Below, in pieces: positions 5,079 through 55,440 of a DNA stretch of 64,000 nucleotides. Source of the DNA: a virus. The position numbers were made by a program, and so were the translations under genes. A model generated the notes under the pieces. It saw nothing but the letters and a program-made list of their open reading frames with translations. It searched no databases and was not told where the DNA came from. Within the stretch, counting starts at the first letter, position 1. The number at the start of each line of letters is the position of its first letter. Location of the stretch: positions 6,309 through 70,308 of the IMG/VR virus record IMGVR_UViG_3300008262_000149; one strand, written 5' to 3'.

Positions 5079-6904
5079 TGGCAGGATTATTAGACGCCGT
5101 ACAAGGTGCTCTTACAGGCGGATCTAAAGCAGTAACTGGCCTGGCGTCGGGTGTTTCTGCTATGCTCTCTTCAAAAGATAAGATAAGCCAAGAAAACTCG
5201 AATGTAATTTATGCTAGTTTCGGATTGGCCGGTACCGCCGCCAAACAGCGGGTTTCCGGGTCTGGAACACTACCAGCGGCTCAGGCTAAAAGCACGTACA
5301 AAGCAAAAACGAATGATACTGAAAAGCTTCTGACCGATGTTGTGAAGTATTTAGTATCAATCAACGGTACTCTAAAGAAGCAAATTGACTTTGACAGAAG
5401 AGTATATGAAGAAAATGCTCTTGCTGCCAGAGAAGCAAAAGTTGAACAAAACAGTACGTTCGAAGAACTTGGAAAGCGATACGGTGCAGCAAACGATAAC
5501 CAAAAACCCGGTGGCGGCATCGTAGCCGGTATTCTAAGTGCGCTTGGCAGTCTTGGAAAATTAGGACTAGATGCATTACTCAAGGGGTTGGTCACAGCCT
5601 TTGAAGCGTTTTCTTCAGCCTGGAAATGGCTACGAGGAATTTCTTTCTTAAAGAATATAAAGAGTTTATTAGGACTTGCACGAGCACTTCCGATCGGACC
5701 AATTGCCGCTGCGCTGGCCGCGGCTGGTGCTATTGTGTGGGGTGTTGACAAGTTCATGAAAAATACTGCGATGGAACCGTTGCAGGCAAGAAAAGAATTG
5801 GAACAGATGTATGGCATGAAACCGGTTCTTGATGAATCTGGCAGATGGACTACAGGCTATACTCTTCCCGATGGCAAAACATATAAACCAAACGCGCTTC
5901 CTTCAAAATACCAAGATATTTTAAATGCGTATGGTCCTGGCGATAAAAGAAACGCCGCTGCTGTTGAAGCAACAAAAAGAATACAAGCAGATCCTGGGGC
6001 CTATGAACCATCTAAGATGGCTGAAGAGTTAAAGGGAGGACAACAAGTTGCTGCACCTACTCCATCAGGAACTCAATCAGCCTCTACAGCTGGCCAGTCG
6101 CCATACGATGTCGTATTGGGTTATGGCAAATTTGGAAAACCAGAAGACTACTTCAATGGTAGAAAGCTATCACAACTTACTGTTGCCGAGGCATTATGGT
6201 TCGGAAGAAACGTTTTAATTCCTAATTCTGGAAGTATGAATTCTAGTGCCATGGGCGCTTATCAAATTGTGTCAAAAACACTACAAGGTCTGGTTGATCA
6301 AGGCGTAGTTAAATTAACTGATACTTTTAATGCGGCAACACAAGATAAAGCTGCTAAGGCGATTTATGATCAAGCCAATAAAGCAGGTACTCTAAATAAG
6401 CAATGGGCTTACTATATTCCGTCATATGGAGGTACAGGACAAAGATCCGATCCTCGTTCTTTTGAAGAAGCAAGAATGGATATCCTGAAAAAGGAAGGAA
6501 CTCTTAAAGGAACTAATAGTGTTCCAATGAGTCCAGCTGCTTCATCTGATAGTCCATTACAACAAGCTGCTGATACTGCTGCAGATGCTGCCGATAAAAT
6601 GTTAACAAGCGTCGCCGAGTTTATTGGAACTCTTGGCGGGAAAATCTTAGGCCCAGGGAAAGTAAGAAATCTTACTACAACCGGACCAGATTTTGCAAAA
6701 CTCATTTCTGAAGAGTCTAGTAAAATTCAAAATCAAATTGCGATGGGTGAGAAAAAGACTAACACCGCAGCTGCCAATATACCGCCGGCTGCTCGTGCTT
6801 TAAAGTCTATTTCTCCAAACGGATCTATTTCTGTTGTTGATCCAAACTATCCTGGTACTGGCGGGATTGAAAAATATCTCGGGCACTATAGACTGGCATC
6901 ATAA
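5078..6904 (+). CDS. tail tape-measure / baseplate hub-like protein
   Basis: 608 aa; Gly/Ala-rich with a hydrophobic AAALAAAGAIVWG segment; a central region has a weak lytic-transglycosylase-like SSAMGAYQIV motif; its C-terminal module is duplicated in 7671..8447. Confidence 0.4.
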   Translation: MAGLLDAVQGALTGGSKAVTGLASGVSAMLSSKDKISQENSNVIYASFGLAGTAAKQRVSGSGTLPAAQAKSTYKAKTNDTEKLLTDVVKYLVSINGTLKKQIDFDRRVYEENALAAREAKVEQNSTFEELGKRYGAANDNQKPGGGIVAGILSALGSLGKLGLDALLKGLVTAFEAFSSAWKWLRGISFLKNIKSLLGLARALPIGPIAAALAAAGAIVWGVDKFMKNTAMEPLQARKELEQMYGMKPVLDESGRWTTGYTLPDGKTYKPNALPSKYQDILNAYGPGDKRNAAAVEATKRIQADPGAYEPSKMAEELKGGQQVAAPTPSGTQSASTAGQSPYDVVLGYGKFGKPEDYFNGRKLSQLTVAEALWFGRNVLIPNSGSMNSSAMGAYQIVSKTLQGLVDQGVVKLTDTFNAATQDKAAKAIYDQANKAGTLNKQWAYYIPSYGGTGQRSDPRSFEEARMDILKKEGTLKGTNSVPMSPAASSDSPLQQAADTAADAADKMLTSVAEFIGTLGGKILGPGKVRNLTTTGPDFAKLISEESSKIQNQIAMGEKKTNTAAANIPPAARALKSISPNGSISVVDPNYPGTGGIEKYLGHYRLAS

Positions 6905-7674
6905 TGGCATTAAAGGTTCTTATCACTGCCATCGACACAACCAACACGGCTAAATCTTTTGGCATCGTTGGTTCTGTTTTACTTAATGAAAGTGATATTA
7001 AAAGAGCTGCAAAACCAATTGCAGCCAACGACGATGCAGTTTCTTATCAAAAAACAGAATTAAACTCTAAAAAACTAGTTGCCGTTATAGATCAACTTTC
7101 TATAATGGACAACTTGTTTAAACAAAAGCTAACTAATCAAAAAATTGCATATCAAAATAATAAATTGAATGAGCAAGAAGATAGAATAGAGCGACAAAGC
7201 CGATTAGAAAAACTCAAAGACGCAGAAAAAGTTCACGGCTCAGAAGAAGGCGGACTTGGATTTCTGGCGCTTGCAGGTATTGGTTTGTTGGCATATGATC
7301 CTATTATGAACGCAATTAAAGGTGTTGTAGATTTTACTGTTGAAGCCGGGACGTTCATTTCAGACACTGTAAAAGAGATTACCTCGTTTTTTAATGGTTT
7401 TTTGCCAGACGAACCAGAAGAAGAATCAATAGAAACCACGGCGCTTCCAACAGCATTACCTGCCGGAACTCTCAGAGGTCAAGCGGAAGCCGGTGTTACG
7501 AACCCTCCACCACCTCCACCGGCTCCCGTTGATGCAAAACCGATTCCGCCGCCTGCTAAACCAGCCGGATCGCTGAGAGGCCAAGCTGAAGCGGATGATT
7601 ATGCGGGAAATCAGCACCAAGTGCCCAGTCTGGACAACAGGAATCAGCGGCAAAGTCGCCTTCAAGTAAAGTGA
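6904..7674 (+). CDS. hypothetical tail/baseplate protein with Pro-rich linker and duplicated GxLRGQAEA motif
   Basis: 256 aa; TAATG coupling upstream and GTGA coupling downstream. Confidence 0.35.
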   Translation: MALKVLITAIDTTNTAKSFGIVGSVLLNESDIKRAAKPIAANDDAVSYQKTELNSKKLVAVIDQLSIMDNLFKQKLTNQKIAYQNNKLNEQEDRIERQSRLEKLKDAEKVHGSEEGGLGFLALAGIGLLAYDPIMNAIKGVVDFTVEAGTFISDTVKEITSFFNGFLPDEPEEESIETTALPTALPAGTLRGQAEAGVTNPPPPPPAPVDAKPIPPPAKPAGSLRGQAEADDYAGNQHQVPSLDNRNQRQSRLQVK

Positions 7675-8447
7675 TTAAAGTTAGCCATCCTTCTACTGGA
7701 GAAGGATGGGGTATTGCTGGCGCCAACGATCAAAGAGGGCGTCCTGTAGTATTCACTAAAGAAGGCGCTGAAGCTTTTTATAAGATGATGATAGATTCGA
7801 ATGGCGTGGTAAAGCCGAGCGACGTTACGAGCAGTAAAAGAACGCGTGCGTATCAAGAAGAAATGAAAAAGCAGGGTTATAATCCTGCGACAAGATCACT
7901 TCATTTAAGTGGCCTTGCTATGGACATTCATGGTGAATCAAACGCTTGGATAAAAAAGCACGGTGCTAAGTATGGGTGGGTAGAAAACAAATATAAAGGC
8001 ACTCATGGTGGCCACTTTCAGTTCGGCGGAAAGGGTCTTTCTCCTGAACAAGGAGAAGTTACTGCTAGGCAATCGGTGGCTGAAAGAGTTGTGAATAAAG
8101 GCGGCGAGGTTGTCGATAAAACTCTTACAAACATGGCAGAATTTATTGGTACTATTGGCGGAAAGGTTGTCGGACCTGGGGTTGCTCGCGATCTTACAAC
8201 CGCCGCTCCTGATTTTGCAAAACTCATTTCAAATGAAGCGGCTGTACAAACTGCAGAAATTGCTAAAATAAAAAGCGATGCAAACAAACCTGCACCGCGT
8301 TTGACAGTATCTCCACCGAATATCAGCGCGGCTGGTTCGACTGCTGTACAAAATGCACCTACAATGATTGACAGAAATAGTGTGCAATACTATCTAAGCC
8401 GTTTTGGATATAAAGAAACAAACGCACCAATTAAAGTAGCTAGATAA
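7671..8447 (+). CDS. tail-associated peptidoglycan peptidase (peptidase M15 / VanY-like domain)
   Basis: GTG start; motif SLHLSGLAMDIHGE ... HGGHFQF matches the Zn-binding H-x6-D...H of M15 L-Ala-D-Glu peptidases. The C-terminal AEFIGTIGGKVVGPG...PDFAKLIS module is shared with 5078..6904. Confidence 0.55.
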   Translation: MIKVSHPSTGEGWGIAGANDQRGRPVVFTKEGAEAFYKMMIDSNGVVKPSDVTSSKRTRAYQEEMKKQGYNPATRSLHLSGLAMDIHGESNAWIKKHGAKYGWVENKYKGTHGGHFQFGGKGLSPEQGEVTARQSVAERVVNKGGEVVDKTLTNMAEFIGTIGGKVVGPGVARDLTTAAPDFAKLISNEAAVQTAEIAKIKSDANKPAPRLTVSPPNISAAGSTAVQNAPTMIDRNSVQYYLSRFGYKETNAPIKVAR

Positions 8448-9421: not shown

Positions 9422-10303
9422 TTAGTCGTTGTGTTTAATCGAGAGGTACTTTGCTCCACCATCCCAAGGCATGAACGGAATATCAGTATATTCAATTGTA
9501 CTGGATTCCTCGAATTGGGGAACAAATACATCTCGAATGTATTTATCATTATCGATGCCAAAAATTTCGTTGGAATATGCAATAAGCCAGTTCTTTGTTC
9601 CACCGATTTTTGTCATGATTTCATCACGAAGTTCGATTGGCATTTCGGTAAATGACCAAGTACCAATCATAAGATCCGCATCATGCAGATCATTCACATC
9701 AGATGTGTGCACGATGTTGGTATAACCCAACTGATCATGATACCACTTCTGAATTGCACCGACCTCAGGGAAATCGTAGATAATGTACTTACCCTTGAAG
9801 CCGAGCTTGTAGACGATATCAGCCATGTCGCCGATACCACCGCCAAGTTCTACAATCGTATCCAGCTTAGACAGTGATTCCGGATCCCATCCATTAATCA
9901 ATAGATGAGCCAGGTGCTGCACACGATTCATTGTTGTTGTAAAGTCTTCGAACAGGTTATAGATACCACGATCCTGTTCGGTGATTCCGATTTCCGGATC
10001 CTCGAGAGCATAGCGAACCTTGGCATTCTCCTTCCACTGCAGAACTACAGCGAAGTAATCAAGGAACCGTGCTCGAGTCATAAAAGGAACTGACATCACC
10101 GATGCCCAAACCTTGAAGCGTTCCTTCGGAAGCTTTTCAAAGTCCTCGGCAAAGACTTCTCGCATTGTGTTCCAGTAGTTGCCGTCGTTGACCTGCTTTG
10201 CAGACATCATCTTTTCGAATGTTTCACGAGAAGATGCCAGAGGAGCTGGGGCAGTCATTGCCGGATCGGCCGGCTTTGTAGTGTAACGAAAATAATCAGT
10301 CAT
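9422..10303 (-). CDS. class I SAM-dependent methyltransferase (likely small-molecule or sugar O-methyltransferase)
   Basis: Motif I VELGGGIGDMADI; no DPPY/NPPY, so unlikely to be a DNA N6-methyltransferase; start ATG overlaps the gp59 stop (TGATG). Confidence 0.55.
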   Translation of the reverse strand: MTDYFRYTTKPADPAMTAPAPLASSRETFEKMMSAKQVNDGNYWNTMREVFAEDFEKLPKERFKVWASVMSVPFMTRARFLDYFAVVLQWKENAKVRYALEDPEIGITEQDRGIYNLFEDFTTTMNRVQHLAHLLINGWDPESLSKLDTIVELGGGIGDMADIVYKLGFKGKYIIYDFPEVGAIQKWYHDQLGYTNIVHTSDVNDLHDADLMIGTWSFTEMPIELRDEIMTKIGGTKNWLIAYSNEIFGIDNDKYIRDVFVPQFEESSTIEYTDIPFMPWDGGAKYLSIKHND

Positions 10304-10893
10304 CAATCACCCGCAAATTTGTCTTTCAATATCTTGCGACACTTAAACATGTCATAATGAAAGAATGGTTTGTACTTACATAACTTTTTATATATGCTCG
10401 GCCAAAGAATACTATCATCAATCTTCTTATTCCAGTGTCCAAAGAAACCAAGAATATCGTTTAGGATAATAATAGTCTCGATCGAGATCTCTCTACGTAA
10501 GTATTGCTTTAGTAGATATGGATGTTGTCCATTCTTTACAATAACATTATCGTCAAAATTTGTACACAGTTTATTTAAGTCTTGCTCAAAAATATAAGTC
10601 AAAGACTGTTGCCTCTTCAGCCAATCTGCGTATACCTGTTCGGACTTATCATCGAACAGATCGCCGATCCACTTTAGATCACCATCAACAAAGTTGGCAA
10701 CCAGGTACTGCAGTGGATTCTTATGCTTGGAGAGTCTATAGAACTGGTACTTGTCCTTGCGCGTCTCAAAACTCGATGCACTGGCAGTCACCTTACCATT
10801 GTATTTTACGTAGTCATAGTTGTCTGTGGTGAAGTGGCTTTTGACAGCAAGGAAAGTCTTGTAGGACTCAAATGGCGTCATTCTTCGATCCAC
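10303..10893 (-). CDS. gp59: gp59 helicase loader protein
   Basis: N-terminal YKTFLAVKSHFTTDNYDYVKYNGKV matches the T4 gp59 pattern YKLYLMIKQHMNGKYDVIKYN; position next to gene 32 as in T4. Confidence 0.7.
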   Translation of the reverse strand: MDRRMTPFESYKTFLAVKSHFTTDNYDYVKYNGKVTASASSFETRKDKYQFYRLSKHKNPLQYLVANFVDGDLKWIGDLFDDKSEQVYADWLKRQQSLTYIFEQDLNKLCTNFDDNVIVKNGQHPYLLKQYLRREISIETIIILNDILGFFGHWNKKIDDSILWPSIYKKLCKYKPFFHYDMFKCRKILKDKFAGD

Positions 10894-16965: not shown

Positions 16966-17708
16966 GCATACAACCTATGATACGATTTAACAAGGTCTGC
17001 AGCTTTTTCGATGTAGTTCGATGGCCGCTCGACAAAGACCTGAGCATCTATTTCATCGTCAACACCGATCATGATTACGATATCCTTGGCTGAGATACCA
17101 GTCATTTCCCAGAGCATATATGCGTACAGACTTGCCTGTAGGAAGTATCCTTCAATCCAATCCTTCCTCTTACGCTTGGTTGATGTCTTATAGTCAATAA
17201 TCGAAAGCCGTCCATCGTAGTTAGCAATCAAATCGCATGTACCAGCAATCTTAAGATGATGACTAAAGAGTGTGCATTCAGTAGCACGGATCATATCAAC
17301 CTTTTCGTCAAGGACCATTTTGAGTTGACGAAACATAAACATGTTGTACGGCATAGAGGTATCAACCTCCTCGCCAAGAATGTACTTTTCACACATTGTA
17401 TGGATGTTAGTACCGCGTGAAGCAGCTCGAGCCGAAACTCGAGCTGCTTCTTCCTCCCCAACTCTTTTTTTCCATTCGTTGAGTGCAGTCTTATCAGTCA
17501 TCTTACCAAGTACGGTAGTTACTGATGGATAGCGTTCTCCTGTCGGAGTCTCATAAAGCCGAGTTTCACCATCAATACGATTAAGTTGAGCGAACTCAAT
17601 CAGATCGTGTTGAAAGTCTTTACGGTTGTAGTCCAAGCTTCTGGCGAGCAATGATGTATTCCTTACAATTATCACCATGCCAGCGTTTGAAATTGCTGGC
17701 ATCGACAT
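16962..17708 (-). CDS. PD-(D/E)xK nuclease (Cas4/RecB-like exonuclease fold)
   Basis: ETPTGERYPSVTTVL ... SIIDYKTS motif; exact start uncertain because it overlaps the homing endonuclease gene. Confidence 0.45.
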   Translation of the reverse strand: MSMPAISNAGMVIIVRNTSLLARSLDYNRKDFQHDLIEFAQLNRIDGETRLYETPTGERYPSVTTVLGKMTDKTALNEWKKRVGEEEAARVSARAASRGTNIHTMCEKYILGEEVDTSMPYNMFMFRQLKMVLDEKVDMIRATECTLFSHHLKIAGTCDLIANYDGRLSIIDYKTSTKRKRKDWIEGYFLQASLYAYMLWEMTGISAKDIVIMIGVDDEIDAQVFVERPSNYIEKAADLVKSYHRLYA

Positions 17709-18225
17709 TTTTACCACAGTGAGAACATGTTTTCTTAGTTCTATTTTTAGCACGTTCTCTTATTAATGTCAAGGTAGAATTTTTATGATTTTTACCGTAC
17801 ATAGGATTTTTTTCACCTGACACGTCTGCATGATTTTTTGATATATTAGACTTGTGCTTCTCAGAAAACTTCACACCCTTTTTAGCCATACTGACCTTTG
17901 TTCCTATAATCTTTTTCATTTTATCCTGATTAGGAAGACCAGAAAAAACAAAACCACCTTGGCCGCCTTTGGCTATATTATAGCACAGCGGATCTTTTAG
18001 GGCTTCTGTTGTTAATAGATTTTTTTCTTCAAAAATCATCTGCTCTTTCGTTTCATGAACAGATAATACTTCTTTTTTAAAATTTTCTAATCCGTACTTT
18101 TTAATAGCATTTTTAATTGCTAAACCAGAACCCATGTAGTTATCATTAAGATCTTGTGTTCCATGCATGCCAATATAGTATCTATTGTTAATTAGATTAG
18201 TAATTTTATAAATGATGTAGAACAT
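17620..18225 (-). CDS. GIY-YIG homing endonuclease (Seg-like)
   Basis: FYIIYKITN...YYIGMHG GIY-YIG motif; AGGAGG ribosome-binding site; TATAAATA late promoter 18 nt upstream. Confidence 0.8.
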   Translation of the reverse strand: MFYIIYKITNLINNRYYIGMHGTQDLNDNYMGSGLAIKNAIKKYGLENFKKEVLSVHETKEQMIFEEKNLLTTEALKDPLCYNIAKGGQGGFVFSGLPNQDKMKKIIGTKVSMAKKGVKFSEKHKSNISKNHADVSGEKNPMYGKNHKNSTLTLIRERAKNRTKKTCSHCGKNVDASNFKRWHGDNCKEYIIARQKLGLQP

Positions 18226-20772: not shown

Positions 20773-21147
20773 TTACTCTTCATCCTTTGGGAATTTATAA
20801 GTGTACGAAACGCTATTGTCTTCATTATAATTAAAATCAAAAATAGTATCAACCATCTCATGGAAAGAATGCGGAAGTTTGTATTGACGACTTACCATGG
20901 ACTTGATTGATTCCATGATCATGGCGACGTCTTTAATGTACTCATCTGAGTTGATGTCAAGACCATAAGAACCGAACAGATGAATGAGATCCGGAATAAG
21001 ATCCATCATCACACCTTCTACGTGTTCTTTTCGGTTCTGAGTGACCTGACCGACGATCTCTTCTAGAGACTGAGGAGGGGAATCTTTTTTGAATCCAGGA
21101 AAAAGAACAACGTTGTCTGTCACTTGACTACCCTTAGCAGAATGCAT
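20773..21147 (-). CDS. hypothetical protein
   Basis: 124 aa. Confidence 0.3.
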   Translation of the reverse strand: MHSAKGSQVTDNVVLFPGFKKDSPPQSLEEIVGQVTQNRKEHVEGVMMDLIPDLIHLFGSYGLDINSDEYIKDVAMIMESIKSMVSRQYKLPHSFHEMVDTIFDFNYNEDNSVSYTYKFPKDEE

Positions 21148-22202
21148 TCTTGGTTGAGTCGGCCATTAGGCTTGCTTTCCGCGGTCTTTATATTTGACAT
21201 AAACGACCTCAGACCAACCTTGCCGGCTGACAAGAGTGCCGTCAGGGATTCTCCGGGCTTTCGTAGAGTCTTCGATGTACTGGATTCTACATCCCATCCA
21301 GTAAGAGTCGTTCCCTTGACTTGAATACCCGCAGGTCCCACTGCTAGGTACTGAGTCAGCTTGCGATACTTGGTGTTGTACACCCATAGCTGTTGACATC
21401 CAATAATTTCGGCCGGATGAACCGACACAATCTTCAGAGAAGGTTCTTCCTTCTGGAACTTCAGGTTCTTCACCAGATCGACGGCCGGCTTGACCTTTTT
21501 CTCTCGTGGCTTACGGACCTTTACCGCCTTCTTGTTATTTATATATCGATCGATCAAAAGTACAAACTCTTCCCAGTACTTTTTGAGGCGAGCACGAGAC
21601 TTCTTCATGGCAGGAGTATCATACTCATCCGGCTCATGATCATTCGCATGTTTCGAGTAGTACTCACGGATTGCGTTTGCTGCCTGAGGTGACACTTCTT
21701 TGGCAACAAGCCAATCATACACATTGAAGTCAGGAACGGTGTCAATGGCTTCTTCGCAGGCAGTAATCAGATTGTGAATCTTAGACTGTACACGATCCTG
21801 GATGCTCACAGCCGGCTTTGGCGATTCGTCTACTTCCTCACGAATCGCCGATGCCAACCGGACCAGCTCCTTGACGCTATTGTCAAAGTAGTCGAGATTC
21901 TTCTGCGGCAGCTCGTTTCCGTTCATGATGATACGAGCAACATTGCCAAGAGTCTTTGAGATCTTGTACTTTGGAAGCCGACGCAGAGCAGACACATCAC
22001 TCTTGGTATACGTCTTCTTGACATACGTGAAGAACCAGTCTCGCGACTGGTCATCATCACTCATATAGTTGTACCAGTTCAGAGCATCACCAAGGTTGGT
22101 TACCTGAATCGGTTCAGGACCGTAAGCCCTTTCATCCAAGGTCTTGATAGCCGACCGAGACATCTGCTTCGGCTTCGGCTTGGTCTTAATCTTGATAGCC
22201 AT
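21120..22202 (-). CDS. hypothetical protein
   Basis: 360 aa, no motif recognised. Confidence 0.4.
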   Translation of the reverse strand: MAIKIKTKPKPKQMSRSAIKTLDERAYGPEPIQVTNLGDALNWYNYMSDDDQSRDWFFTYVKKTYTKSDVSALRRLPKYKISKTLGNVARIIMNGNELPQKNLDYFDNSVKELVRLASAIREEVDESPKPAVSIQDRVQSKIHNLITACEEAIDTVPDFNVYDWLVAKEVSPQAANAIREYYSKHANDHEPDEYDTPAMKKSRARLKKYWEEFVLLIDRYINNKKAVKVRKPREKKVKPAVDLVKNLKFQKEEPSLKIVSVHPAEIIGCQQLWVYNTKYRKLTQYLAVGPAGIQVKGTTLTGWDVESSTSKTLRKPGESLTALLSAGKVGLRSFMSNIKTAESKPNGRLNQECILLRVVK

Positions 22203-22325
22203 CGGTATCCACCTTCTTTACACGACGAAACGATCCCTTGCCTTTCTTGGCAGGGATCGCTTTAGGCTTATTCACCCGGCCGACTGCCCGAGCAATAGGA
22301 TTTCGAGATTTGAGTTTCTGTTTCA
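22202..22325 (-). CDS. small basic hypothetical protein
   Basis: About 41 aa; directly downstream of an early promoter. Confidence 0.2.
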
Positions 22326-22333
22326 TAATATTC

Positions 22334-22362
22334 AGTATATTACGTAACATAAAAAATGTACA
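22334..22362 (-). promoter_or_regulatory. early promoter TGTACA-N17-TATACT
   Basis: repeated promoter family. Confidence 0.45.
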
Positions 22363-22365
22363 CAA

Positions 22366-22950
22366 CTATTTTTGTCTGATGTACTTTGCGATCATGTGCA
22401 TGATTGCCTGATGGACATCTTCAGTGGCCTCATACTCATCGCAATCAACATGAATAGAAATGTCGGCCAGTCGTGCACACCAGTTATCTGGCGACATACC
22501 AGTCAGAGCAATGGTTTTCATTTTCTTTAGCCGTGCCATTTCAATCGCTTTAACAACATTAGGCGAGTTGCCGCTCGACGAGATTGCAACCAACACGTCG
22601 CCTTCCTGGCCAAATGACTCAAGCTGAAATGAATAAACATCGTCATAGGAGATATCATTTGAGATTGCCGTCATGAGAGGGATGTTAGCTGCCAGCGAAA
22701 TGACTCTTGGAACTACACCGCCCTTACGGCAACCCTTGGTATAGTCACATGCCCAGTGTTGTGCAATCGCTGCTGATGCACCGTTACCAATAGTATAGAT
22801 GTTTCTTCTGTGATTTGATAAGCTGGTCAAAAAGAGAAGTTCTGCTGCTCTCTTGAACTGAACAACATCAATACTATCAAAGGCCTTGAGTACTTTTTCT
22901 CTGTGCTCAGTAAGGATATCAGTCGCGGTAAACAACTTTTGCTCCTTCAT
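22366..22950 (-). CDS. SIS-domain sugar-phosphate isomerase (GmhA / sedoheptulose-7-phosphate isomerase-like)
   Basis: IGNGASAAIAQHWACDY plus a distal SIS motif. Confidence 0.7.
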   Translation of the reverse strand: MKEQKLFTATDILTEHREKVLKAFDSIDVVQFKRAAELLFLTSLSNHRRNIYTIGNGASAAIAQHWACDYTKGCRKGGVVPRVISLAANIPLMTAISNDISYDDVYSFQLESFGQEGDVLVAISSSGNSPNVVKAIEMARLKKMKTIALTGMSPDNWCARLADISIHVDCDEYEATEDVHQAIMHMIAKYIRQK

Positions 22951-23869
22951 GTGAAATTCCTATGTCTAGACACGTGCGGTCTGAAAACTCTTTTCGAATT
23001 GCATTCTTTGATTCTGTGAGAGCTAGCATATATCCACCGCCACCAGCTCCGAGTAGTTTGGCACCAAGTGCACCTACGGCTTGACACCGTTCGTACATAC
23101 TATCTATCTCATCATTCGAGATCTCATCAGACATTTGTTTCTTGAGTATCCATGCCGAGTTGAGCAACCGACCATACTCATTTGGATTCACCGGTTGCGT
23201 GGCCTGCATCTCTGCCATATGGGCCAACTCACGAATCACAAAGGTCTTGGCTTCAAAGTTAATCGTATCAAGAATCTTGGCCGCGTGGTGCTCTATGTTC
23301 GTAGGAACCAGAATAAGCCAATTTTCAAGTGCATTCGAATCCAAGCGTTTTACGTCTACACGACCATTGCCAAGTTCATTCGAATAACGAATGTAGTTCA
23401 TGCCACCGAATGCAGAAGCAAACTGATCTTGCATACCGATCTTCCAACCACAGAGGTCAATCTCGATATGACACGCAGTCTTGGCAATACCATATGGATT
23501 CATATACTCATAGCCAAGATATGCACTCAGAGCTTTGACAAGAGCACAAGTAAAGGCAGACGATCCACCAAGACCATTACCGATCGTGGGGATGTCTGCG
23601 AATGATGTGATTTCAATGTTGGACTTGATACCAAAGAACTTCAATGCGTTACGGACGATTTCATTCTGAATTTCGTCTACGTGCTCTACGCACTCTTGCT
23701 TTGAATAGGAGACTTTGATATGATTATGAGGTGTGTGCATGACAGCTACGTAGACATACTTATCGATAGCAGTCGAGATTGTAGCTCCACCCCATTGGGC
23801 GAAGTGGGCGGGGATATCACTACCCCCGCCAAAGAACGAGACTCTAAGCGGCGCTTTTGCCAAGATCAC
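22919..23869 (-). CDS. GHMP-family sugar kinase (HddA-like heptose-7-phosphate kinase)
   Basis: PLRVSFFGGGSD and IPTIGNGLGGSSAFTCALVKA GHMP motifs. Confidence 0.7.
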   Translation of the reverse strand: MILAKAPLRVSFFGGGSDIPAHFAQWGGATISTAIDKYVYVAVMHTPHNHIKVSYSKQECVEHVDEIQNEIVRNALKFFGIKSNIEITSFADIPTIGNGLGGSSAFTCALVKALSAYLGYEYMNPYGIAKTACHIEIDLCGWKIGMQDQFASAFGGMNYIRYSNELGNGRVDVKRLDSNALENWLILVPTNIEHHAAKILDTINFEAKTFVIRELAHMAEMQATQPVNPNEYGRLLNSAWILKKQMSDEISNDEIDSMYERCQAVGALGAKLLGAGGGGYMLALTESKNAIRKEFSDRTCLDIGISHEGAKVVYRD

Positions 23870-24752
23870 GGTGTTGTTCCTTCAATGATGCAATCAGTCC
23901 TTTCCACTTCGGCATGATCGACTCCCAAGAGAATCGAGTATCGGCGTATGCCTTGATGAACGTGAGAAGGTTTGTCAGGTCGCCATCATATTGTACAGTC
24001 AGCCCGGCTGAAGTATCAGTAAGAGCAGAGAAGTTAGGGTGAACAGCCAAACAACCAGCAGACATAGCCTCGATAAGAGATCTGCATGACGTTTCAGGCC
24101 AGATACAAGGGTACGCAAAGATGTGAGCCTTTTGATAGGCGGCACGAACTGTCTCCTGATCCGCCCAACCGTGGTAGTTAATTTGTGGATGGTCTCTCAT
24201 CTTCTGGAAGAGAGGTTCATACTGTGCATCTCGGCCTTCCCAATTCTTACCATAGATACCGAACGAACTAAACACGTCGAGTTCAATATTAGGATACTTT
24301 TCAGCTAGAGCGCAAAATACAGGAACCAGAATCTCCAGTCCACGATGAGGTGTGGACGTATAAATGAGGCGTATTTTGTCCTTTGGCTTTTCAACGAGAG
24401 GAATTGGTTCGACACCTGTTTCAATAACGCACGATTGGTGGCTATATGGAACTCCAAGATAGTCACGATATTGCTGATACTGCCAGTTGCTGCTAAAGAC
24501 CAACTTGTGGAAGCGAGCTCGAGAAGCTGGGTCTTTAAGGTGTTCAGCTTCTGGATCGAGAGCAAGATCATGTAGGTGGTAGATTCTAATTCGCTCAGGA
24601 TCCAACTCGCGGACGCGAGCAGTGATAATTTGGATTCCATCGAGCTCATCACGAGTAAGTCGGTGGAAGAGATTTCGAGTGGTGAGTTCTGTTCCACCGT
24701 TCGACTCCTTGTTGAGCTCATTCAATTCAATTAGGTCTTGATTATTCATCAT
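23844..24752 (-). CDS. glycosyltransferase family 1 (GT4-like)
   Basis: C-terminal ETSCRSLIEAMSAGCLAV motif; start ATGATGAATAA overlaps the HAD gene stop. Confidence 0.6.
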   Translation of the reverse strand: MMNNQDLIELNELNKESNGGTELTTRNLFHRLTRDELDGIQIITARVRELDPERIRIYHLHDLALDPEAEHLKDPASRARFHKLVFSSNWQYQQYRDYLGVPYSHQSCVIETGVEPIPLVEKPKDKIRLIYTSTPHRGLEILVPVFCALAEKYPNIELDVFSSFGIYGKNWEGRDAQYEPLFQKMRDHPQINYHGWADQETVRAAYQKAHIFAYPCIWPETSCRSLIEAMSAGCLAVHPNFSALTDTSAGLTVQYDGDLTNLLTFIKAYADTRFSWESIMPKWKGLIASLKEQHRDLGKSAA

Positions 24753-25089
24753 TGTATCCAGTAAGTTCAAAATCGCGGTCTGCATGGAAAAAGAATTCTC
24801 TGTCATTAAAAGCCTTGTCATCGACCCAAACATCGTATGATGGCTTTCCTAGACGGATTTCGTGGAACTTGCAGCCCCAATCGTTGAGTTGTTTGTGGGT
24901 GAGTTCGGTCCAGTCAATTCCCGATCCTGAACCACGGGCCGTCCAATAAATGATCGTTGCGCCCTGATCGTATAGTTTATTTATATGATCAATGCGATGC
25001 TTCATAGGAACAGACTGATCATAATGATGAACACCATCAATTAATGGAGTGTAACAGATAGTCTGATCAATATCTACTATGAAGATCAT
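24742..25089 (-). CDS. HAD-superfamily phosphatase (GmhB-like)
   Basis: DxD motif IVDIDQTIC at the N-terminus. Confidence 0.5.
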   Translation of the reverse strand: MIFIVDIDQTICYTPLIDGVHHYDQSVPMKHRIDHINKLYDQGATIIYWTARGSGSGIDWTELTHKQLNDWGCKFHEIRLGKPSYDVWVDDKAFNDREFFFHADRDFELTGYNDE

Positions 25090-25367
25090 GCTGTGAATCC
25101 AATAACCGAGTCGTAACGAAACGATCTCCAACCTTCGTTCTCAAGGTCCCACACGGCTTGTACATTTGGATTCGAATGCACTGGCTTCAATGTATCTTCT
25201 TTATGGGGAAGAAGATCTGGCTTGAGTGTGCAGCGCATCTTGCGCTCCGTACCATCCTTCTTTATAAAGAGAACCTCTACTGTTCCGTTATGAAGGGCTT
25301 CCTTTAGGAATTCATTCTGCCAGGAAGTGCTGTTCTGGTCGGTTGTAGTATTCAACGAGTCTGTCAT
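25086..25367 (-). CDS. hypothetical protein
   Basis: Start uncertain. Confidence 0.25.
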   Translation of the reverse strand: MTDSLNTTTDQNSTSWQNEFLKEALHNGTVEVLFIKKDGTERKMRCTLKPDLLPHKEDTLKPVHSNPNVQAVWDLENEGWRSFRYDSVIGFTA

Positions 25368-25563
25368 AACCACCCACTCTTTCTTCATCAATAATAATAA
25401 AAGGAACTGTTTTCACGTCTGGAAAGATGCTAATAAATTCTTCACGAGTTAGATCGACACCGATCTTCATTTCTTCGTAAGTCTGGCCTTTCAAAGAAAA
25501 CAAGTTCTTTGCCTGAACACAATATGGACAATTATCTTTTGTGTAGATAACAACCTTATTCAT
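25312..25563 (-). CDS. glutaredoxin (NrdC-like)
   Basis: CPYC active site in MNKVVIYTKDNCPYCVQAK. Confidence 0.75.
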   Translation of the reverse strand: MNKVVIYTKDNCPYCVQAKNLFSLKGQTYEEMKIGVDLTREEFISIFPDVKTVPFIIIDEERVGGYDRLVEYYNRPEQHFLAE

Positions 25564-26294: not shown

Positions 26295-26720
26295 TCACGT
26301 TTTCTGAATTAAAGACAACTCTTTTTCTCTGTCAATATACTTATACTCTACTTTTGTAGGACCCCAGGACTCAATTGCAGCAAACACATCATCAATATTG
26401 AGTGCGCTACAAGTATAGACGTCCAGTTGAGCAAGTGCTGGTTCACACTCATCCCAAACATGAAGAGCAATATGACTGGTTTCAATAATAGTGACTGCGG
26501 TCAAACCGCGGTTGCCAACCATATCTGAATAAACTGAATATGGACCCATGAGGATCTTCATATCAATTGCTTCGACGAGCTTTCGCATCCACACATCAAT
26601 GGCTGTAGTGCATTGCGGAGGATTATCTAATTCTGCTCTTACGATTAAGTGCTTGTGTTCTAGTACCTTACCCACCTCATAAAGTCTCCTGTTCGGGGTT
26701 AAAGAGTAGAGCCTTGACAT
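26295..26720 (-). CDS. speH: S-adenosylmethionine decarboxylase proenzyme (SpeH/SpeD class 1b)
   Basis: GPYSVYSDMVGNRGLTAVTIIETSHIALHVWDE motif. Confidence 0.7.
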   Translation of the reverse strand: MSRLYSLTPNRRLYEVGKVLEHKHLIVRAELDNPPQCTTAIDVWMRKLVEAIDMKILMGPYSVYSDMVGNRGLTAVTIIETSHIALHVWDECEPALAQLDVYTCSALNIDDVFAAIESWGPTKVEYKYIDREKELSLIQKT

Positions 26721-26925: not shown

Positions 26926-27063
26926 TTATTCGTCTTCATCTTCATCATCAAGAAGTTCTTCTGGGAGATCCTCACCGCAGTAAGGACAGAAGAGAGGAGA
27001 AAGTGTGCAGTCTGATACTAATTTAAATTCCTCCTCGCAGGAGGGGCAAGTTGTCCAATCCAT
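26926..27063 (-). CDS. small zinc-ribbon protein with acidic tail
   Basis: CPSC...CPYC pairs; AAGGAAAA ribosome-binding site. Confidence 0.35.
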
Positions 27064-27078
27064 TAAATGTGTTTTCCT

Positions 27079-27086
27079 TATAAATA
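27079..27086 (+). promoter_or_regulatory. T4-type late promoter TATAAATA
   Basis: 57 nt upstream of the plus-strand GIY-YIG gene. Confidence 0.4.
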
Positions 27087-27142
27087 AGTGTGGTTCGCGG
27101 TCTCGTACACCCAACCACTCTAATGCCATTGGGAGCACCAGC

Positions 27143-27688
27143 ATGAATATTTACTATATATATGCCTATTTAAGATCTTCAAATAATACTCCCTATTATA
27201 TAGGGAAAGGTAAAGATGATAGAGCTTATGCAAAACATAAAGGCATCTCTACTCCAAAAGATCGTTCTAAAATTGTTATATTAGAATCTAATTTAACTGA
27301 AGTTGGAGCATTTGCTTTAGAGCGCCGTTATATCAAATGGTATGGTCGTAAAGATCTAAAAACAGGAATATTATTAAACAAAACAGATGGTGGAGAAGGA
27401 TCTTCTGGTTTAATTCATTCAAAGGAAACCAAAGCAAAAATATCACAATTAAAAACCGGTTCTAAAACTAAACCCCGCAGTGAAGAATTTAAAAAATTAT
27501 TAAGTGAAAAATATAAAGGCAAACCTCTTTCAGAAGAAACAAGAAGAAAGATGAGCGAAGCCGCTAAGAGACGTAAAACTCAACCAAGATCTGGTTGTAA
27601 ACATTCAGAAGAAACTAAAGCAAAAATAGCTATAGCTAAAATGGGAAATCAATGCGCTAGAAAATATCCTAAAGCTGAAAGCCTTTGA
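27143..27688 (+). CDS. GIY-YIG homing endonuclease with NUMOD3-like repeats
   Basis: IYYIYAY...PYYIGKGK plus repeated [11 protein letters not shown] / SEETKAKIA; GGGAG ribosome-binding site; lone plus-strand gene convergent with nrdB. Confidence 0.8.
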
Positions 27689-45268: not shown

Positions 45269-45880
45269 TTAATCCAGTTCTTGAATCTCGCAATAAAGGA
45301 CTCGTAAGGGCATGGGCATGCCCTTACGAACGTCATGATAGAGTTCATCCTTGTGCGCTTTACTCATCCCGGCCGGAGCCATCTTATGAAACGACTCCTT
45401 GTCTCCGGCTGAAGCGTGCTTGCGCATTGCCGTACCAGAAGCAGCAGCAATTCCTTCACCTGTGTCTGAACGCTCGCCGCCGACAGACTTGACCTTGATG
45501 CTCTTGAAGTTATAGTGTCCATGCCTCCCTTCAGTTCCATTATACTTGTGGAGCAAGTTATGAAACTCATGGACACGATCTGAGCCGACATGCATAGTTA
45601 CGTGTGTGTAACCAGCCTTATGCAGCTTAGACATCTGATGAAGCAACGTAGGATGATCTTTACCCATAGCCTCTACCTTCGCGCCCTTCACGGCACGAGA
45701 CAGATGCTTGACCTTCTGTTCTGGAGTCAGAGGATTCTTCTTGGCATCATGAGAACCGGTTGTCAAGATCTTATGATCTGCACCTTCCTTCTTAGCGGCA
45801 TCCATCACATGCTTTACGACCATTTCGTGGCCAGCATGCACAGGATTGAATCTTCCTTGAGTGATATGGATTGCCTTCAC
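45269..45880 (-). CDS. cytidylyltransferase-family nucleotidyltransferase (HxGH motif)
   Basis: GRFNPVHAGH fits the GxFxxxHxGH motif of NMNAT / heptose-1-P adenylyltransferase / CoaD; His-rich. Confidence 0.5.
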   Translation of the reverse strand: MKAIHITQGRFNPVHAGHEMVVKHVMDAAKKEGADHKILTTGSHDAKKNPLTPEQKVKHLSRAVKGAKVEAMGKDHPTLLHQMSKLHKAGYTHVTMHVGSDRVHEFHNLLHKYNGTEGRHGHYNFKSIKVKSVGGERSDTGEGIAAASGTAMRKHASAGDKESFHKMAPAGMSKAHKDELYHDVRKGMPMPLRVLYCEIQELD

Positions 45881-47046
45881 AGCGATTTGTCCTTGTTGAA
45901 GTTAGCAGCCGAGAACTCAGCACGATCAACAATCTTAGTAGGACGATTATGTCTTACCACCACAAATCCTTCAGGCTTAGATTTCTTTCCACTGATACTA
46001 TGATCAAACTCAGCACGACTCGAGAGTGTATTAGATAACACATCCTTTGCCTTCTGAAGATGGTTGTGCATCTGCAAAATGCGTTCGAAGTGACCACGAT
46101 TGCGTTGGACATGAGCAATATCTTGCTCCATTGCCGCAGTCTTTGATGCCTTCGAGGCAGCAGTCTTTACAGAGTCGATCTTCTTCTGATGCGACTTAGC
46201 AAGATGCGCCATAAACTCATTTACATTCGGCTTAGTACCGGTACGAACCGTATGGTTGATATATGTCTTGAGAGGAATACGGTGGCTCTCGATGGCCGCA
46301 TGAGTTTCAGGACCGGTCTTTGCATGCAACTTAGCAGCAGCTGCCATGTGCTTGACAAACTTAGCCTGGTGTTGTGGCTTATAATCAATGCCAGACATGT
46401 CATGTTCTGTAGAGATAAGATGCACATCCTTGTGCAGTCCAAACTCATCAAGGTTTGGTGCATACTCGGCCTTCATGTCTTCGAGGTTCTTACCGTTATA
46501 CTTGGTATGAACAGCAACACCGATCTTTGAACGAAGTGCTGCTTTGCCATGATGCGAGTTCTTATCAGCAGAGTACGTAATGGTATTTGGTGTAAAGTGA
46601 ATCTTATTGCCCGATTCGTGCACATCATTTTGTGTGTGCATGATATCACCTTGGAACACACCCTTACGGGGAGTTACCTTCGGCAGATGATCCAAGGCAG
46701 CTTTCAGTTTCTCTACAAGACCAGGAGCATGACCATGATTGCGTTCAATGTCCTCATGCGTGTAGTTGATCTTTGGATTCTTGTTGAACGCAGACTTGGA
46801 TGCAACAAAGAACTTACCAGTTTCAGGATGACGACCAAACACAACAGAAGGCGAACCGTCATACTTCATGGTTACCTTCGTGGCATTCTCTTTACCAGTT
46901 AGTTTATCATGCACATCCTTGAGATTATGATAAGCGTGTGAGAACCCTTCGGCGCCAGCATTAATCACATGATCTTCTGCATGCTCAAGATGCTTGAGCT
47001 TTTCTTCACTTACTTCTTCGGTCAAGAAATTTTTAAATGCTGTCAT
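45877..47046 (-). CDS. ATP-dependent ligase-like nucleotidyltransferase (KxDG)
   Basis: Motif I TMKYDGSPSVVFG, motif IV/V PEGFVVVRHNRPTKIV; unusually long (about 300 aa) His-rich spacing between the motifs. Confidence 0.45.
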   Translation of the reverse strand: MTAFKNFLTEEVSEEKLKHLEHAEDHVINAGAEGFSHAYHNLKDVHDKLTGKENATKVTMKYDGSPSVVFGRHPETGKFFVASKSAFNKNPKINYTHEDIERNHGHAPGLVEKLKAALDHLPKVTPRKGVFQGDIMHTQNDVHESGNKIHFTPNTITYSADKNSHHGKAALRSKIGVAVHTKYNGKNLEDMKAEYAPNLDEFGLHKDVHLISTEHDMSGIDYKPQHQAKFVKHMAAAAKLHAKTGPETHAAIESHRIPLKTYINHTVRTGTKPNVNEFMAHLAKSHQKKIDSVKTAASKASKTAAMEQDIAHVQRNRGHFERILQMHNHLQKAKDVLSNTLSSRAEFDHSISGKKSKPEGFVVVRHNRPTKIVDRAEFSAANFNKDKSL

Positions 47047-47648
47047 TTTACCGTCTTTATCGATCCATCAGGGTTTACAAAATATGCTTCAAACTTAATG
47101 TTTGGATATTCTTTTTGCAGCGAAAGAAATGCATGAAGATTGCTAGGAGCATCATCAAACAATCTCAGCTTAACGTAGTTCTTTGTATTTATATACTTGC
47201 GGAAGATGATCTTCTTAGCTTCTGCCGAAGAGTCGATCTTCAAGTTACCAGCGCGCTCAACGTGAATCTGATCAATCGGAAGACCATGATCACGAAACGT
47301 CTGAAGGAAGAGATCCTTGTTATCAAAGTCAGCCCGTGCAGTGCAGATGATTACCCGGCTGTGAGGATTCTTCTTCGAGTTGGCAAAGATCGCTTTCGCC
47401 TTTGCAACCATACGAGAGATTGGAGTCGAGGTCTTGCGAAATACCTCTGCGCTCGCAAACTCTCCGAAGTCGTAGGTCTCGCCTTCCTTACGCTTGTAGG
47501 TGTTAAACTCCTGGTTATCCAACATTCGAACAACCTTGCCATCCTTTACGACAGCAACCTTTGCCTTCGTATGGAAGAGTGTCTCATCGATATCGAATAT
47601 CGTGAGCGTACCAGAACCAACAAACTCTCTAAACCTTTTCTTGATCAT
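47043..47648 (-). CDS. HAD-family phosphatase (polynucleotide 3'-phosphatase-like)
   Basis: DxDxT motif IFDIDETLFH; likely leaderless mRNA from the adjacent promoter. Confidence 0.55.
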   Translation of the reverse strand: MIKKRFREFVGSGTLTIFDIDETLFHTKAKVAVVKDGKVVRMLDNQEFNTYKRKEGETYDFGEFASAEVFRKTSTPISRMVAKAKAIFANSKKNPHSRVIICTARADFDNKDLFLQTFRDHGLPIDQIHVERAGNLKIDSSAEAKKIIFRKYINTKNYVKLRLFDDAPSNLHAFLSLQKEYPNIKFEAYFVNPDGSIKTVK

Positions 47649-54174: not shown

Positions 54175-54407
54175 CAAAAAAATTACTGTTGAAGCAACAT
54201 TTCGATCAATGGCTTCAGTTCATCAGCGTATTGTTGGCCAACGCTTGTGCTCAGGATTAGAACAGCAGCGCCGATTAGAGCAACCTTGATTGCTATAGAC
54301 TTGTATTTTGACATTTCTTCTTACCTGCCTTGGATTTGGGTTTACAAACGTCAGGGTGAAACATAGTGTCTCTCAGGTGTAATATTTATAAAACCATAAA
54401 TAGGAGC

Positions 54408-55439
54408 ATGACGACATGCATACTTATTCCTGCCCACAACGAGGAAGTTGTGTTGCAGAGCACGCTCAATTCTCTCTATGAAGTGGGATTCGATCCCACC
54501 ATTATTTATTGTGTCGACGACTTCTCTACAGACAAAACCTACGATATTTGTATTGAAAATAAAATAAATGTCTGTAGGACTCCAACCGGACTAGGAAAGG
54601 CCGGCGCACAGCAGTACGCCATTCAGCATTTCGAGCTGTGTGATAAATACAAATATGTAATCATGATAGATGCTGACACAAAAATAGATCAAAACTTTAA
54701 AGATGTTTTAACGTTGAATCTGCTACACTACAATGACGTAGATCTTTTTATTGGACAGGTTACGAGTTCTAAAGCAAATCATATCTACTCTGCGTATCGA
54801 ACTGTAGAATACACGTTCTCGCACGAGGTGGTTAAAAAGGGACAGGCAGCTTTCGGAGTTGTTTATGTTGCGCCTGGGTGCGTTTCAATATATTCAACCG
54901 ACATATTAAGACATTTGGAATTTGATTCTTCGGTGCTTACAGAAGATATGGATCTCACGTTACAGGTTCATAAGTTAGGCGGAAAGATCAAATACCTACA
55001 TGATGTGAAGGTGATTACGCAGGATCCGAGTACGTTCAAAGACTACCATAAACAGATGATGAGATGGTACGGTGGATTCTGGCAGGTCATTATGAAATAC
55101 GCCAACAGAAATAACAGGTTTAAGGGCGTTGATTTTTATCTGCTTTATTTGATATTAGATTCTTTGGTACTGAATAGACTCATCATGCTTTCTGCGAGCT
55201 TCATAGTACTTGGTCTAAAATCTATCTTATTGGTCTTGTTTATTGATATGTGCATATTTGCTCTCGCTGCAGTATATGCTTCATACAAAAATGATCGCAA
55301 TGATTTAATATATAAAGTTCCAGTTCTATATCTTTTGTCGTTTTTTAATACGTATGCTTACATAAAAAGTTTCTTTGACGTTATAGTGCTTCGAAAGAAA
55401 AAGAATAACTGGAACAAAGTTAAAAGATACGGAGAATGA
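54408..55439 (+). CDS. processive family-2 glycosyltransferase (PgaC/NodC/HAS-like) with C-terminal transmembrane helices
   Basis: CILIPAHNEE, DAD (IMIDADT) and Q-x-x-RW (KQMMRW) motifs; hydrophobic C-terminus. Confidence 0.6.
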   Translation: MTTCILIPAHNEEVVLQSTLNSLYEVGFDPTIIYCVDDFSTDKTYDICIENKINVCRTPTGLGKAGAQQYAIQHFELCDKYKYVIMIDADTKIDQNFKDVLTLNLLHYNDVDLFIGQVTSSKANHIYSAYRTVEYTFSHEVVKKGQAAFGVVYVAPGCVSIYSTDILRHLEFDSSVLTEDMDLTLQVHKLGGKIKYLHDVKVITQDPSTFKDYHKQMMRWYGGFWQVIMKYANRNNRFKGVDFYLLYLILDSLVLNRLIMLSASFIVLGLKSILLVLFIDMCIFALAAVYASYKNDRNDLIYKVPVLYLLSFFNTYAYIKSFFDVIVLRKKKNNWNKVKRYGE

Positions 55440-55440
55440 A

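Follow-up and report, generated by a model that had tools for sequence, protein, structure and literature searches.

The DNA considered here is a stretch of 64,000 nucleotides from the IMG/VR virus record IMGVR_UViG_3300008262_000149 (positions 6,309 to 70,308 of that record), which is called the window throughout. Four overlapping genes on its minus strand, at positions 22366-25089, encode relatives of a sugar isomerase, a sugar kinase, a glycosyltransferase and a phosphatase. Together with a fifth gene located outside the window, they probably form a phage-encoded route that runs from sedoheptulose 7-phosphate to a nucleotide-activated heptose, plus a dedicated glycosyltransferase. The window carries the gene set of a freshwater T4-like phage, including gp32, the gp59 loader, RNase H, UvsX and a gp41-type helicase, as well as a family B polymerase, primase, RNA ligase, PhoH, NrdAB and baseplate genes. 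No DNA-level relative was found in the INPHARED phage collection using searches for near and distant DNA matches. The four genes of the cluster are:

22366..22950, minus strand: GmhA-like SIS isomerase, 194 amino acids, Pfam family SIS_2
22919..23869, minus strand: homologue of GHMP-family heptokinases, 316 amino acids, GTG start, Pfam families GHMP_kinases_N and GHMP_kinases_C
23844..24752, minus strand: GT4-type, GT-B glycosyltransferase, 302 amino acids in this copy, ATG ATG start, Pfam family Glycos_transf_1
24742..25089, minus strand: putative AfhF-type minimal HAD phosphatase, 115 amino acids, HAD motifs and a match to PDB entry 9IQW

An original prediction, made from the sequence and a list of its open reading frames (ORFs), had described four overlapping minus-strand genes here, and direct reading of coordinates and junctions confirms this. 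The end of the kinase gene overlaps the start of the isomerase gene by 32 nucleotides, the end of the glycosyltransferase gene overlaps the GTG start of the kinase gene by 26 nucleotides, and ATGATGAATAA is common to the phosphatase stop and the glycosyltransferase start. Relatives were collected by scanning IMG/VR with the window kinase, which gave 80 loci at 79-100% kinase identity. The order phosphatase-glycosyltransferase-kinase-isomerase is kept in all 63 loci that hold all four genes; the 32-nucleotide overlap is retained in 57 of 57 loci and the 26-nucleotide overlap in 41 of the 42 that could be evaluated. The cluster is thus linked in related phages, as had been proposed, with order and overlaps conserved. 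No gene of the neighborhood is better conserved than the kinase, whose median identity over the 80 loci is 86%, versus 79% for RNase H; the small flanking genes reach 59-62%. The cluster is abundant, and its kinase is more strongly constrained than a core replication gene. On two distant T4-like metagenomic contigs (L083, 204 kb, and L084, 155 kb), glycosyltransferase, kinase and isomerase genes occur at the same place and are accompanied by SDR epimerases/dehydratases, methyltransferases and one family 2 glycosyltransferase.

Enzyme families were assigned by scanning nearly all larger ORFs of the window with Pfam, NCBIfam and PHROG models, while about 18 kb of flanking sequence was covered through precomputed gene annotations. 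The four fold and family assignments of the original prediction (SIS, GHMP, Glycos_transf_1 and HAD) hold, the last of these being recognized without a Pfam hit. The route would start from sedoheptulose 7-phosphate, an intermediate of the host pentose-phosphate pathway, which the SIS enzyme is predicted to convert to D-glycero-D-manno-heptose 7-phosphate. This protein matches SIS_2 with an E-value of 7.7e-20, its top NCBIfam model is gmhA TIGR00441 (E 1.3e-32), and 15 of its 16 PDB sequence matches are GmhA or the paralogue DiaA (top match 1X94, E 3.9e-24). At H61, E65, Q172 and H180, which we take to be the metal and catalytic positions of E. coli GmhA, it has H, D, E and H, respectively. These conservative substitutions are invariant in 104 viral homologues and look like a clade signature, not decay. 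Among the relatives, identity to the window isomerase is bimodal, at either ~76% or ~57%.

The GHMP kinase would phosphorylate C1 of the heptose 7-phosphate to give heptose 1,7-bisphosphate. It matches GHMP_kinases_N (E 2.7e-12) and GHMP_kinases_C (E 3e-8) and its best NCBIfam model is HddA NF049969 (E 2.7e-33). The description of this protein as HddA-like is supported. Because its top PDB matches are heptokinases with E-values of 2e-28 to 3e-25 (Bacteroides 3K85, Burkholderia WcbL 4USK/4USM and Campylobacter 4N3O), versus 6e-11 for the best mevalonate kinase, it is not a generic galactokinase or mevalonate kinase and, by sequence, clearly falls on the heptokinase branch of the GHMP family.

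The HAD protein would then remove the 7-phosphate, converting heptose 1,7-bisphosphate to heptose 1-phosphate. It had been called GmhB-like, and this assignment was not sustained: the protein has no Pfam match, no GmhB model in NCBIfam or Pfam recognizes it, and the GmhB structures 4PNH and 2GMW come only at ranks 18 and 27 (E 0.2-0.34). Instead, by both sequence and predicted fold its best relative is 9IQW, the D-arabinose 1,5-diphosphate phosphatase AfhF of phage HY126 (phmmer E 1.4e-7; Foldseek E 3e-6, 32% identity), followed among solved structures by 1XPJ. It is 38% identical to RB69 gp51 and matches phrog_1238 (E 6.5e-27) and TIGR01689 (E 0.004). The HAD motifs (D6xD8xT10, T50, K82 and D90-D91) are invariant or nearly so in 38 homologues, and the predicted model has a pLDDT of 90.7. 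Taken from sequence and model, the protein is a putative minimal sugar-bisphosphate phosphatase of the AfhF/TIGR01689 type. Phosphatases of this type are labelled "phosphoheptose isomerase" in PHROG 1238, in RB69p051 (NC_004928) and in many Tevenvirinae records, a mislabelling that has been propagated across phage genomes and PHROGs.

The nucleotidyltransferase, which would convert heptose 1-phosphate to a nucleoside diphosphate (NDP)-heptose, was located through related phages. The Caulobacter phage Cr30 encodes gp178, a 133-residue HldC-like protein, a few genes past RNase H. In the Synechococcus phage SynMITS9220M01 a "hypothetical protein" beside the isomerase is a fusion, with an N-terminal half 45% identical to the window phosphatase and a C-terminal half 42% identical to gp178. 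Using gp178 and this fusion as queries, a second set of 68 other IMG/VR loci was found. Here, the phosphatase is present in 65, directly upstream of the nucleotidyltransferase, the GHMP kinase in 54, the SIS isomerase in 41 and an SDR epimerase in 67. The cassette order is kinase, isomerase, phosphatase fused to nucleotidyltransferase, and epimerase, and the two fused domains are encoded as one ORF in 63 of 64 viral cassettes.

The window's own UvsX was found on three contigs that all extend past the window end, and two of these, L163 and L164, agree with window 51.4-64.0 kb at 100.000% identity over 11.7-12.4 kb. On all three, the DNA polymerase, an endolysin and an HSP20 gene are followed, outside the window, by a gene for a 135-residue protein of the CTP_transf_like family. 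This gene occupies L164:4853-5260, corresponding to approximately 67,161-67,568 on the minus strand in window terms, ~3.2 kb past the window end, and is placed between a 75-residue ORF and the HSP20 gene. Its product is 46% identical to Cr30 gp178 (E 2e-47). This putative HldC/TagD-like nucleotidyltransferase is likely, by sequence, to be the fifth enzyme of the pathway, and with its gene in the same genome the phage would encode all four steps to a nucleotide heptose. The nucleotide is most likely ADP, or possibly CDP.

From NDP-heptose the sugar would be transferred by the soluble GT4 enzyme. The four window proteins lack membrane segments and therefore the chemistry is expected to be cytoplasmic. 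Because the phosphatase is AfhF-type and the nucleotidyltransferase HldC/TagD-like, the predicted route is a hybrid that combines a kinase of the HddA type with a phosphatase of the AfhF type and a transferase of the HldC type, and it corresponds to neither bacterial pathway. Genes of the kind that act on such products occur inside the cluster of relatives, namely SDR epimerases/dehydratases and Methyltransf_24 methyltransferases, and NDP-sugars are the usual substrates of enzymes like these. The epimerases of the relatives score better as GalE than as HldD; none was found in the window and accessible flanks of this genome. In most of the loci L002-L080, a 251-residue Methyltransf_24 methyltransferase gene lies between the isomerase gene and that of a 360-residue protein (for example L006:7519-8274), which suggests an O-methylated sugar in those relatives. 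The window has a 59-residue ORF at 22186-22365 instead.

Several observations weigh against this scheme. The activities of its five enzymes are predictions, and the matches on which three of them are based lie below curated thresholds: the isomerase scores 113 bits with TIGR00441 (cut-off 209.45), the kinase 115.8 bits with NF049969 (cut-off 600) and the nucleotidyltransferase 62 bits with rfaE_dom_II (HldE domain II; cut-off 181) and 65 bits with TagD, also under its cut-off. In this genome, the nucleotidyltransferase gene is ~42 kb away from the cluster. Characterized GHMP heptokinases produce the alpha anomer and HldC uses the beta anomer; with this unusual combination, the anomer or the nucleotide may be wrongly assigned. 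The window copy of the glycosyltransferase gene has an in-frame deletion, as described below, and orthologues of that gene occupy the same slot with no heptose genes nearby in phiM12-type phages, in the Stenotrophomonas phage DLP6 and on several metagenomic contigs. The glycosyltransferase may therefore not be heptose-specific.

The original prediction had read the cluster as three of the four enzymes of the GDP-heptose pathway and had pointed to an HxGH gene at 45269 as a possible source of the missing step. There is indeed a genuine HxGH ORF at 45269-45880, the sole one in the window by a regular-expression scan, and HddA is the best model for the kinase. In spite of this, a GDP-heptose pathway completed by this ORF is very unlikely indeed. 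HddC is an NTP_transferase-family enzyme and not an HxGH enzyme, and no HddC-type guanylyltransferase was found in the window ORFs or in the annotations of the ~18 kb flanks. The 45269 ORF belongs to a different family, a "cytidylyltransferase" family present in 556 phage records, mostly from cyanophages, versus 12 for the kinase. Its best score is NMNAT-like and weak, DUF6267 and a PNK-like protein accompany it, and BLAST detects no homologue of it in Cr30, a phage that has the cluster. In addition, the phosphatase is not GmhB, and a better candidate nucleotidyltransferase, fused to the phosphatase elsewhere, is encoded outside the window in the same genome. The alternative that the heptose genes and the glycosyltransferase are neighbors with no shared product is quite unlikely. 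Here, the phage would boost or redirect the host heptose supply, for instance in favor of lipopolysaccharide (LPS) core synthesis or to draw off sedoheptulose 7-phosphate, and the glycosyltransferase would use a host sugar nucleotide. The orthologues that lack heptose genes in phiM12, DLP6 and the contigs L165-L167 are in its favor, as are the cyanophage-type cassettes, in which this glycosyltransferase family is found in 0 of 68 and the SynMITS9220M01-type glycosyltransferase stands beside the kinase in only 5 of 54. Against it, the heptose genes flank the glycosyltransferase gene on both sides with stop/start overlaps in every locus that has all four genes, and the same adjacency is seen in Cr30, L083 and L084. 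A shared route to activated heptose remains the preferred reading.

The genes around 45269 form a trio on the minus strand (45269-47648) encoding DUF6267 (389 residues), the HxGH "cytidylyltransferase" (203 residues) and a PNK-like HAD protein (201 residues). DUF6267 and the "cytidylyltransferase" are fused in PHROG 455; they are widespread in cyanophages.

The glycosyltransferase matches Glycos_transf_1 (E 9.8e-8; 32.2 bits with PF00534, gathering cut-off 26.4) and Glyco_trans_1_4. An AlphaFold2 model of the full-length homologue P0002 has a pLDDT of 94.7 and a GT-B fold with two Rossmann domains, and both glutamates of the E-x7-E motif (E219 and E227) are retained without exception in 72 homologues. 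Foldseek searches of the PDB and of viral models returned generic GT4 neighbors that share 13-16% identity and give no hint of the acceptor, and a sequence search of the PDB gave no match. The protein is acidic in net charge and isoelectric point (pI), which is not discriminating since the DNA arabinosyltransferase of RB69 is acidic as well.

At 40-49% identity, orthologues are encoded by Cr30, DLP6, phages of the Sinorhizobium phiM12 group, one Rhizobium phage and one Ochrobactrum phage. The phiM12 genes run glutaredoxin, WYL_2 protein, glycosyltransferase, 360-residue protein, 124-residue protein and RNase H, which is the backbone of the window minus the heptose genes. A search for the glycosyltransferase yielded 3,410 related proteins from metagenomes. 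In contrast, only eight relatives were found in cellular genomes (185,579 bacterial and archaeal species, one genome each), and at least three of these eight loci are phage-like contigs in metagenome-assembled genome bins with glutaredoxin directly upstream, two of them also with RNase H downstream. Given this synteny across phages and the scarcity of cellular relatives, the sequences indicate that the glycosyltransferase gene has long belonged to the backbone of this branch, is nearly confined to phages and has a fixed slot in the replication module. The heptose genes appear to be an accessory module established to either side of it.

Its neighbor in this slot, the 360-residue protein encoded at 21120-22202 (minus strand), is very basic (pI 9.6, net charge +19; phrog_11903) and is a constant neighbor of the glycosyltransferase/heptose block in this clade, in Cr30 and in phiM12; in DLP6 it is elsewhere in the genome, apart from the glycosyltransferase. 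Next come an acidic 124-residue protein and then RNase H.

The window copy of the glycosyltransferase gene lacks 78 nucleotides (26 codons, in frame; junction 23982/23981) that are present in L001, which is otherwise 99.8-100% identical to the window, and in all other relatives. The resulting 302-residue form occurs on one contig only, a 70,308-bp JGI contig from which the window evidently derives, and the junction shows just 2-3 nucleotides of microhomology (GA). The deletion removes helix 261-281 of the model of the 328/329-residue form and, with this helix missing, the enzyme of this contig may be inactive. A second loss, of 112 nucleotides at 7602/7603, is seen relative to three other contigs (L159-L161). 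It splits a 551-residue gene, intact on those contigs, into ORFs at 6904-7674 and 7671-8447, adjoining baseplate/tail genes. Because of these two deletions, the source contig is either a damaged variant genome or contains assembly errors.

Two further features adjoin or lie within the cluster:

25086..25391, minus strand: small WYL_2 (DUF2693) protein, Pfam WYL_2 E 5.4e-15
24978..24985, minus strand: TATAAATA, the T4 late-promoter consensus, inside the phosphatase gene and 226 nucleotides upstream of the glycosyltransferase start

The WYL_2 gene is joined to the downstream phosphatase gene by an ATGA overlap and is a conserved upstream neighbor of the glycosyltransferase, with the same position in phiM12 and L084; it is a possible member of the unit. 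The TATAAATA motif occurs 12 times in the window versus 1.96 expected. Within the phosphatase gene, ATAAAT is kept in 40 of 41 distinct gene sequences, where it encodes Ile36 (ATA) and Asn37 (AAT). The Ile36 codon is always ATA, whereas other conserved isoleucine codons never are. The motif could possibly be an internal promoter for the glycosyltransferase, kinase and isomerase genes, a weak proposal. A scan for sigma-70 promoters and terminators gave nothing distinctive inside the cluster.

For the acceptor of the sugar, a glycan or lipid of the infected-cell envelope is the leading guess, albeit a weak one, followed by phage DNA and, lower still, virion protein. The envelope is placed first because the tailoring enzymes in relatives, a second membrane glycosyltransferase locus and the traditional LPS/glycan reading of phage heptose genes (PMC7378029, PMC7029224) favor a glycan. 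The second locus, at 54366-56270 on the plus strand, encodes a family 2 glycosyltransferase with two C-terminal membrane segments and is an envelope-type sugar locus in the same phage. Next in line are genes for a 142-residue protein with an N-terminal signal-peptide-like sequence and a 137-residue protein with two membrane segments. An envelope acceptor fits poorly with a glycosyltransferase that is nearly phage-restricted, its synteny being shared by phages of Sinorhizobium, Caulobacter and Stenotrophomonas. As these hosts have very different LPS, a phage-intrinsic acceptor is favored on this point over host LPS. A gene for a 294-residue protein weakly similar to NanM-type sugar O-methyltransferases (E 9e-8; Methyltransf_2) is found at 9422-10306 (minus strand) between gp32 and the gp59 loader, an odd site for a sugar-modifying enzyme.

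Cr30 and phiM12 are generalized transducing phages, which speaks against modified phage DNA. If DNA were the target, activated heptose would be placed on it as a base hypermodification, the heptose counterpart of arabinosyl-5-hydroxycytosine in RB69 and HY126 or of glucosyl-hydroxymethylcytosine in T4. DNA is a serious candidate, if a doubtful one, since both the Afh pathway of DNA arabinosylation and a metavirome cluster that produces mono- and di-heptosyl-5-hydroxymethylcytosine in E. coli (bioRxiv 10.1101/2023.12.21.572611) have been published. The phosphatase is of the family used in DNA arabinosylation and the logic of the two routes is the same (isomerase, anomeric kinase, phosphatase, nucleotidyltransferase and GT-B enzyme). 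In addition, genes for replication and nucleotide metabolism surround the cluster (nrdAB, glutaredoxin, RNase H and primase), its glycosyltransferase is almost phage-only and syntenic across hosts, and a possible late promoter precedes that gene. On the other side, the window encodes ThyX but has no ThyA homologue (tblastn), and no C5-methyltransferase or TET/JBP enzyme was found in the window scans or flank annotations. Cr30, whose genome is complete, encodes only one ThyA, with the canonical residues L143, D169 and N177, in the same alignment where RB69 gp48 is D169N/N177D. When RB69 gp48, the RB69 isomerase, the RB69 kinase and ThyA were compared with the window, there were no homologues, and the phosphatase was the sole RB69 match. 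In the 65-kb part of the DLP6 genome that was searched (tblastn), neither ThyA nor ThyX had a homologue, an uninformative result. Finally, known DNA glycosyltransferases resemble the phage glycosyltransferase no more closely than dozens of other GT4 enzymes do.

Transfer of heptose to a phage protein, either virion or another structural component, is unlikely. Virion glycosylation is known in mycobacteriophages and chloroviruses, and the phage-restricted glycosyltransferase, syntenic across unrelated hosts, argues for a phage-intrinsic acceptor. The protein O-glycosyltransferases SdgB and GtfA are among its top structural neighbors, and the late-promoter-like motif lies upstream of its gene. 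Those structural matches are generic (13-16% identity), the cluster sits in a replication/nucleotide-metabolism block and not among structural genes, and we know of no glycosylated virion protein in a T4-like phage. It is likewise unlikely that the GT4 enzyme of this T4-superfamily branch acts on a phage-intrinsic target, DNA or virion protein, with a heptose nucleotide from the hybrid pathway. If it did, the product could be a nucleotide sugar new with respect to bacteria, for example ADP- or CDP-alpha-heptose. If the target were DNA, abundant freshwater T4-like phages would have a naturally heptosylated genome, with an acceptor base made by a not-yet-recognized enzyme.

Further genes of the surrounding region include an S-adenosylmethionine decarboxylase homologue at 26295-26720 (minus strand; AdoMet_dc E 5.7e-13), which is 70-100% conserved in relatives. 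Beside it on the opposite strand, a GIY-YIG-type ORF (27005-27688, plus strand) abuts the end of nrdB, and a SegE-like ORF is found at 17620-18225. A tRNA scan found no tRNA genes.

The cluster as such is not new, since the same genes are named in Cr30 and cyanophage records; it is an uncharacterized, conserved phage sugar module of known kind. Literature searches for functional studies of the heptose genes of Cr30 or cyanophages yielded annotation-level statements only. The role of heptose genes in T4-like aquatic phages has been a question since the first cyanophage genomes, with "LPS" as the usual, annotation-based answer. What is added here is a proposed scheme complete with five enzymes, the corrected family of the phosphatase, the evidence from its fusion to the nucleotidyltransferase, the location of a candidate fifth enzyme, the proposed hybrid pathway, an evolutionary link between a predicted heptose phosphatase and the phosphatase of DNA arabinosylation, and the likely status of the glycosyltransferase as part of the phage backbone and not a gene recently acquired from a host.

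Comparison with known systems places the route between several of them. We know of no characterized pathway with this combination of enzymes. With the bacterial heptose routes the phage shares a GmhA-type isomerase, the HddA-type kinase of the GDP route and the HldC-type nucleotidyltransferase of the ADP route. Unlike them, it mixes one element from each route and has an AfhF-type phosphatase in place of GmhB. The ADP-heptose pathway uses a PfkB-type kinase (HldA or the HldE N-terminal domain), the adenylyltransferase HldC and the epimerase HldD, whereas the phage kinase is a GHMP protein.

The Afh pathway, which gives arabinosyl-5-hydroxycytosine DNA in phages RB69, HY126 and DLP3 according to PMC13326640 (He et al. 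and Mahler et al. cited there), resembles the proposed route in its logic and in starting from a ketose phosphate of the pentose-phosphate pathway. The phosphatases are homologous (AfhF 9IQW, RB69 gp51) and both systems have GT-B enzymes with generic GT4-like folds. In contrast, the Afh sugar is the five-carbon arabinose, its isomerase is KdsD-type, its kinase APH-type and its pyrophosphorylase NTP_transferase-type, and a ThyA homologue with D169N makes the acceptor base, of which none was found in the window. The metavirome "contig 53" cluster (bioRxiv 10.1101/2023.12.21.572611), set against the window by its description, likewise has an HAD protein, a sugar kinase, a cytidylyltransferase-family enzyme and a GT-B enzyme, and involves heptose. 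It differs in an adjoining C5-methyltransferase and TET-like dioxygenase, in an APH-type kinase fused to the HAD domain and in a transferase resembling T4 beta-glucosyltransferase.

The cyanophage-type cassette (SynMITS9220M01 genes 203-207 and 67 IMG/VR loci), read by annotation as "heptose-related LPS synthesis" (PMC7378029), shares the GHMP kinase (~28-30% identity), the SIS isomerase, the phosphatase (~45%) and the same nucleotidyltransferase family. There, unlike in the window, phosphatase and nucleotidyltransferase are fused, an SDR epimerase is next and the glycosyltransferases are of other families. Cr30 (NC_025422; gp006-gp010 and gp178) has orthologues of the isomerase (49%), kinase (36%) and glycosyltransferase (42-46%), annotated together with their neighbors as phosphoheptose isomerase, D,D-heptose 7-phosphate kinase, glycosyltransferase, nucleotide-sugar epimerase and "heptose 1-phosphate adenyltransferase". 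As in the window, its cluster lies between glutaredoxin and the 360-residue protein/RNase H, and its small HldC-like nucleotidyltransferase gp178 is close by across the genome ends. Unlike the window, Cr30 has an SDR epimerase in place of the phosphatase, in the order isomerase-kinase-glycosyltransferase-epimerase, and no AfhF-type phosphatase was found in its whole genome. As Cr30 is cultivable on Caulobacter crescentus and carries this orthologous set, the question of the acceptor can be addressed directly there.

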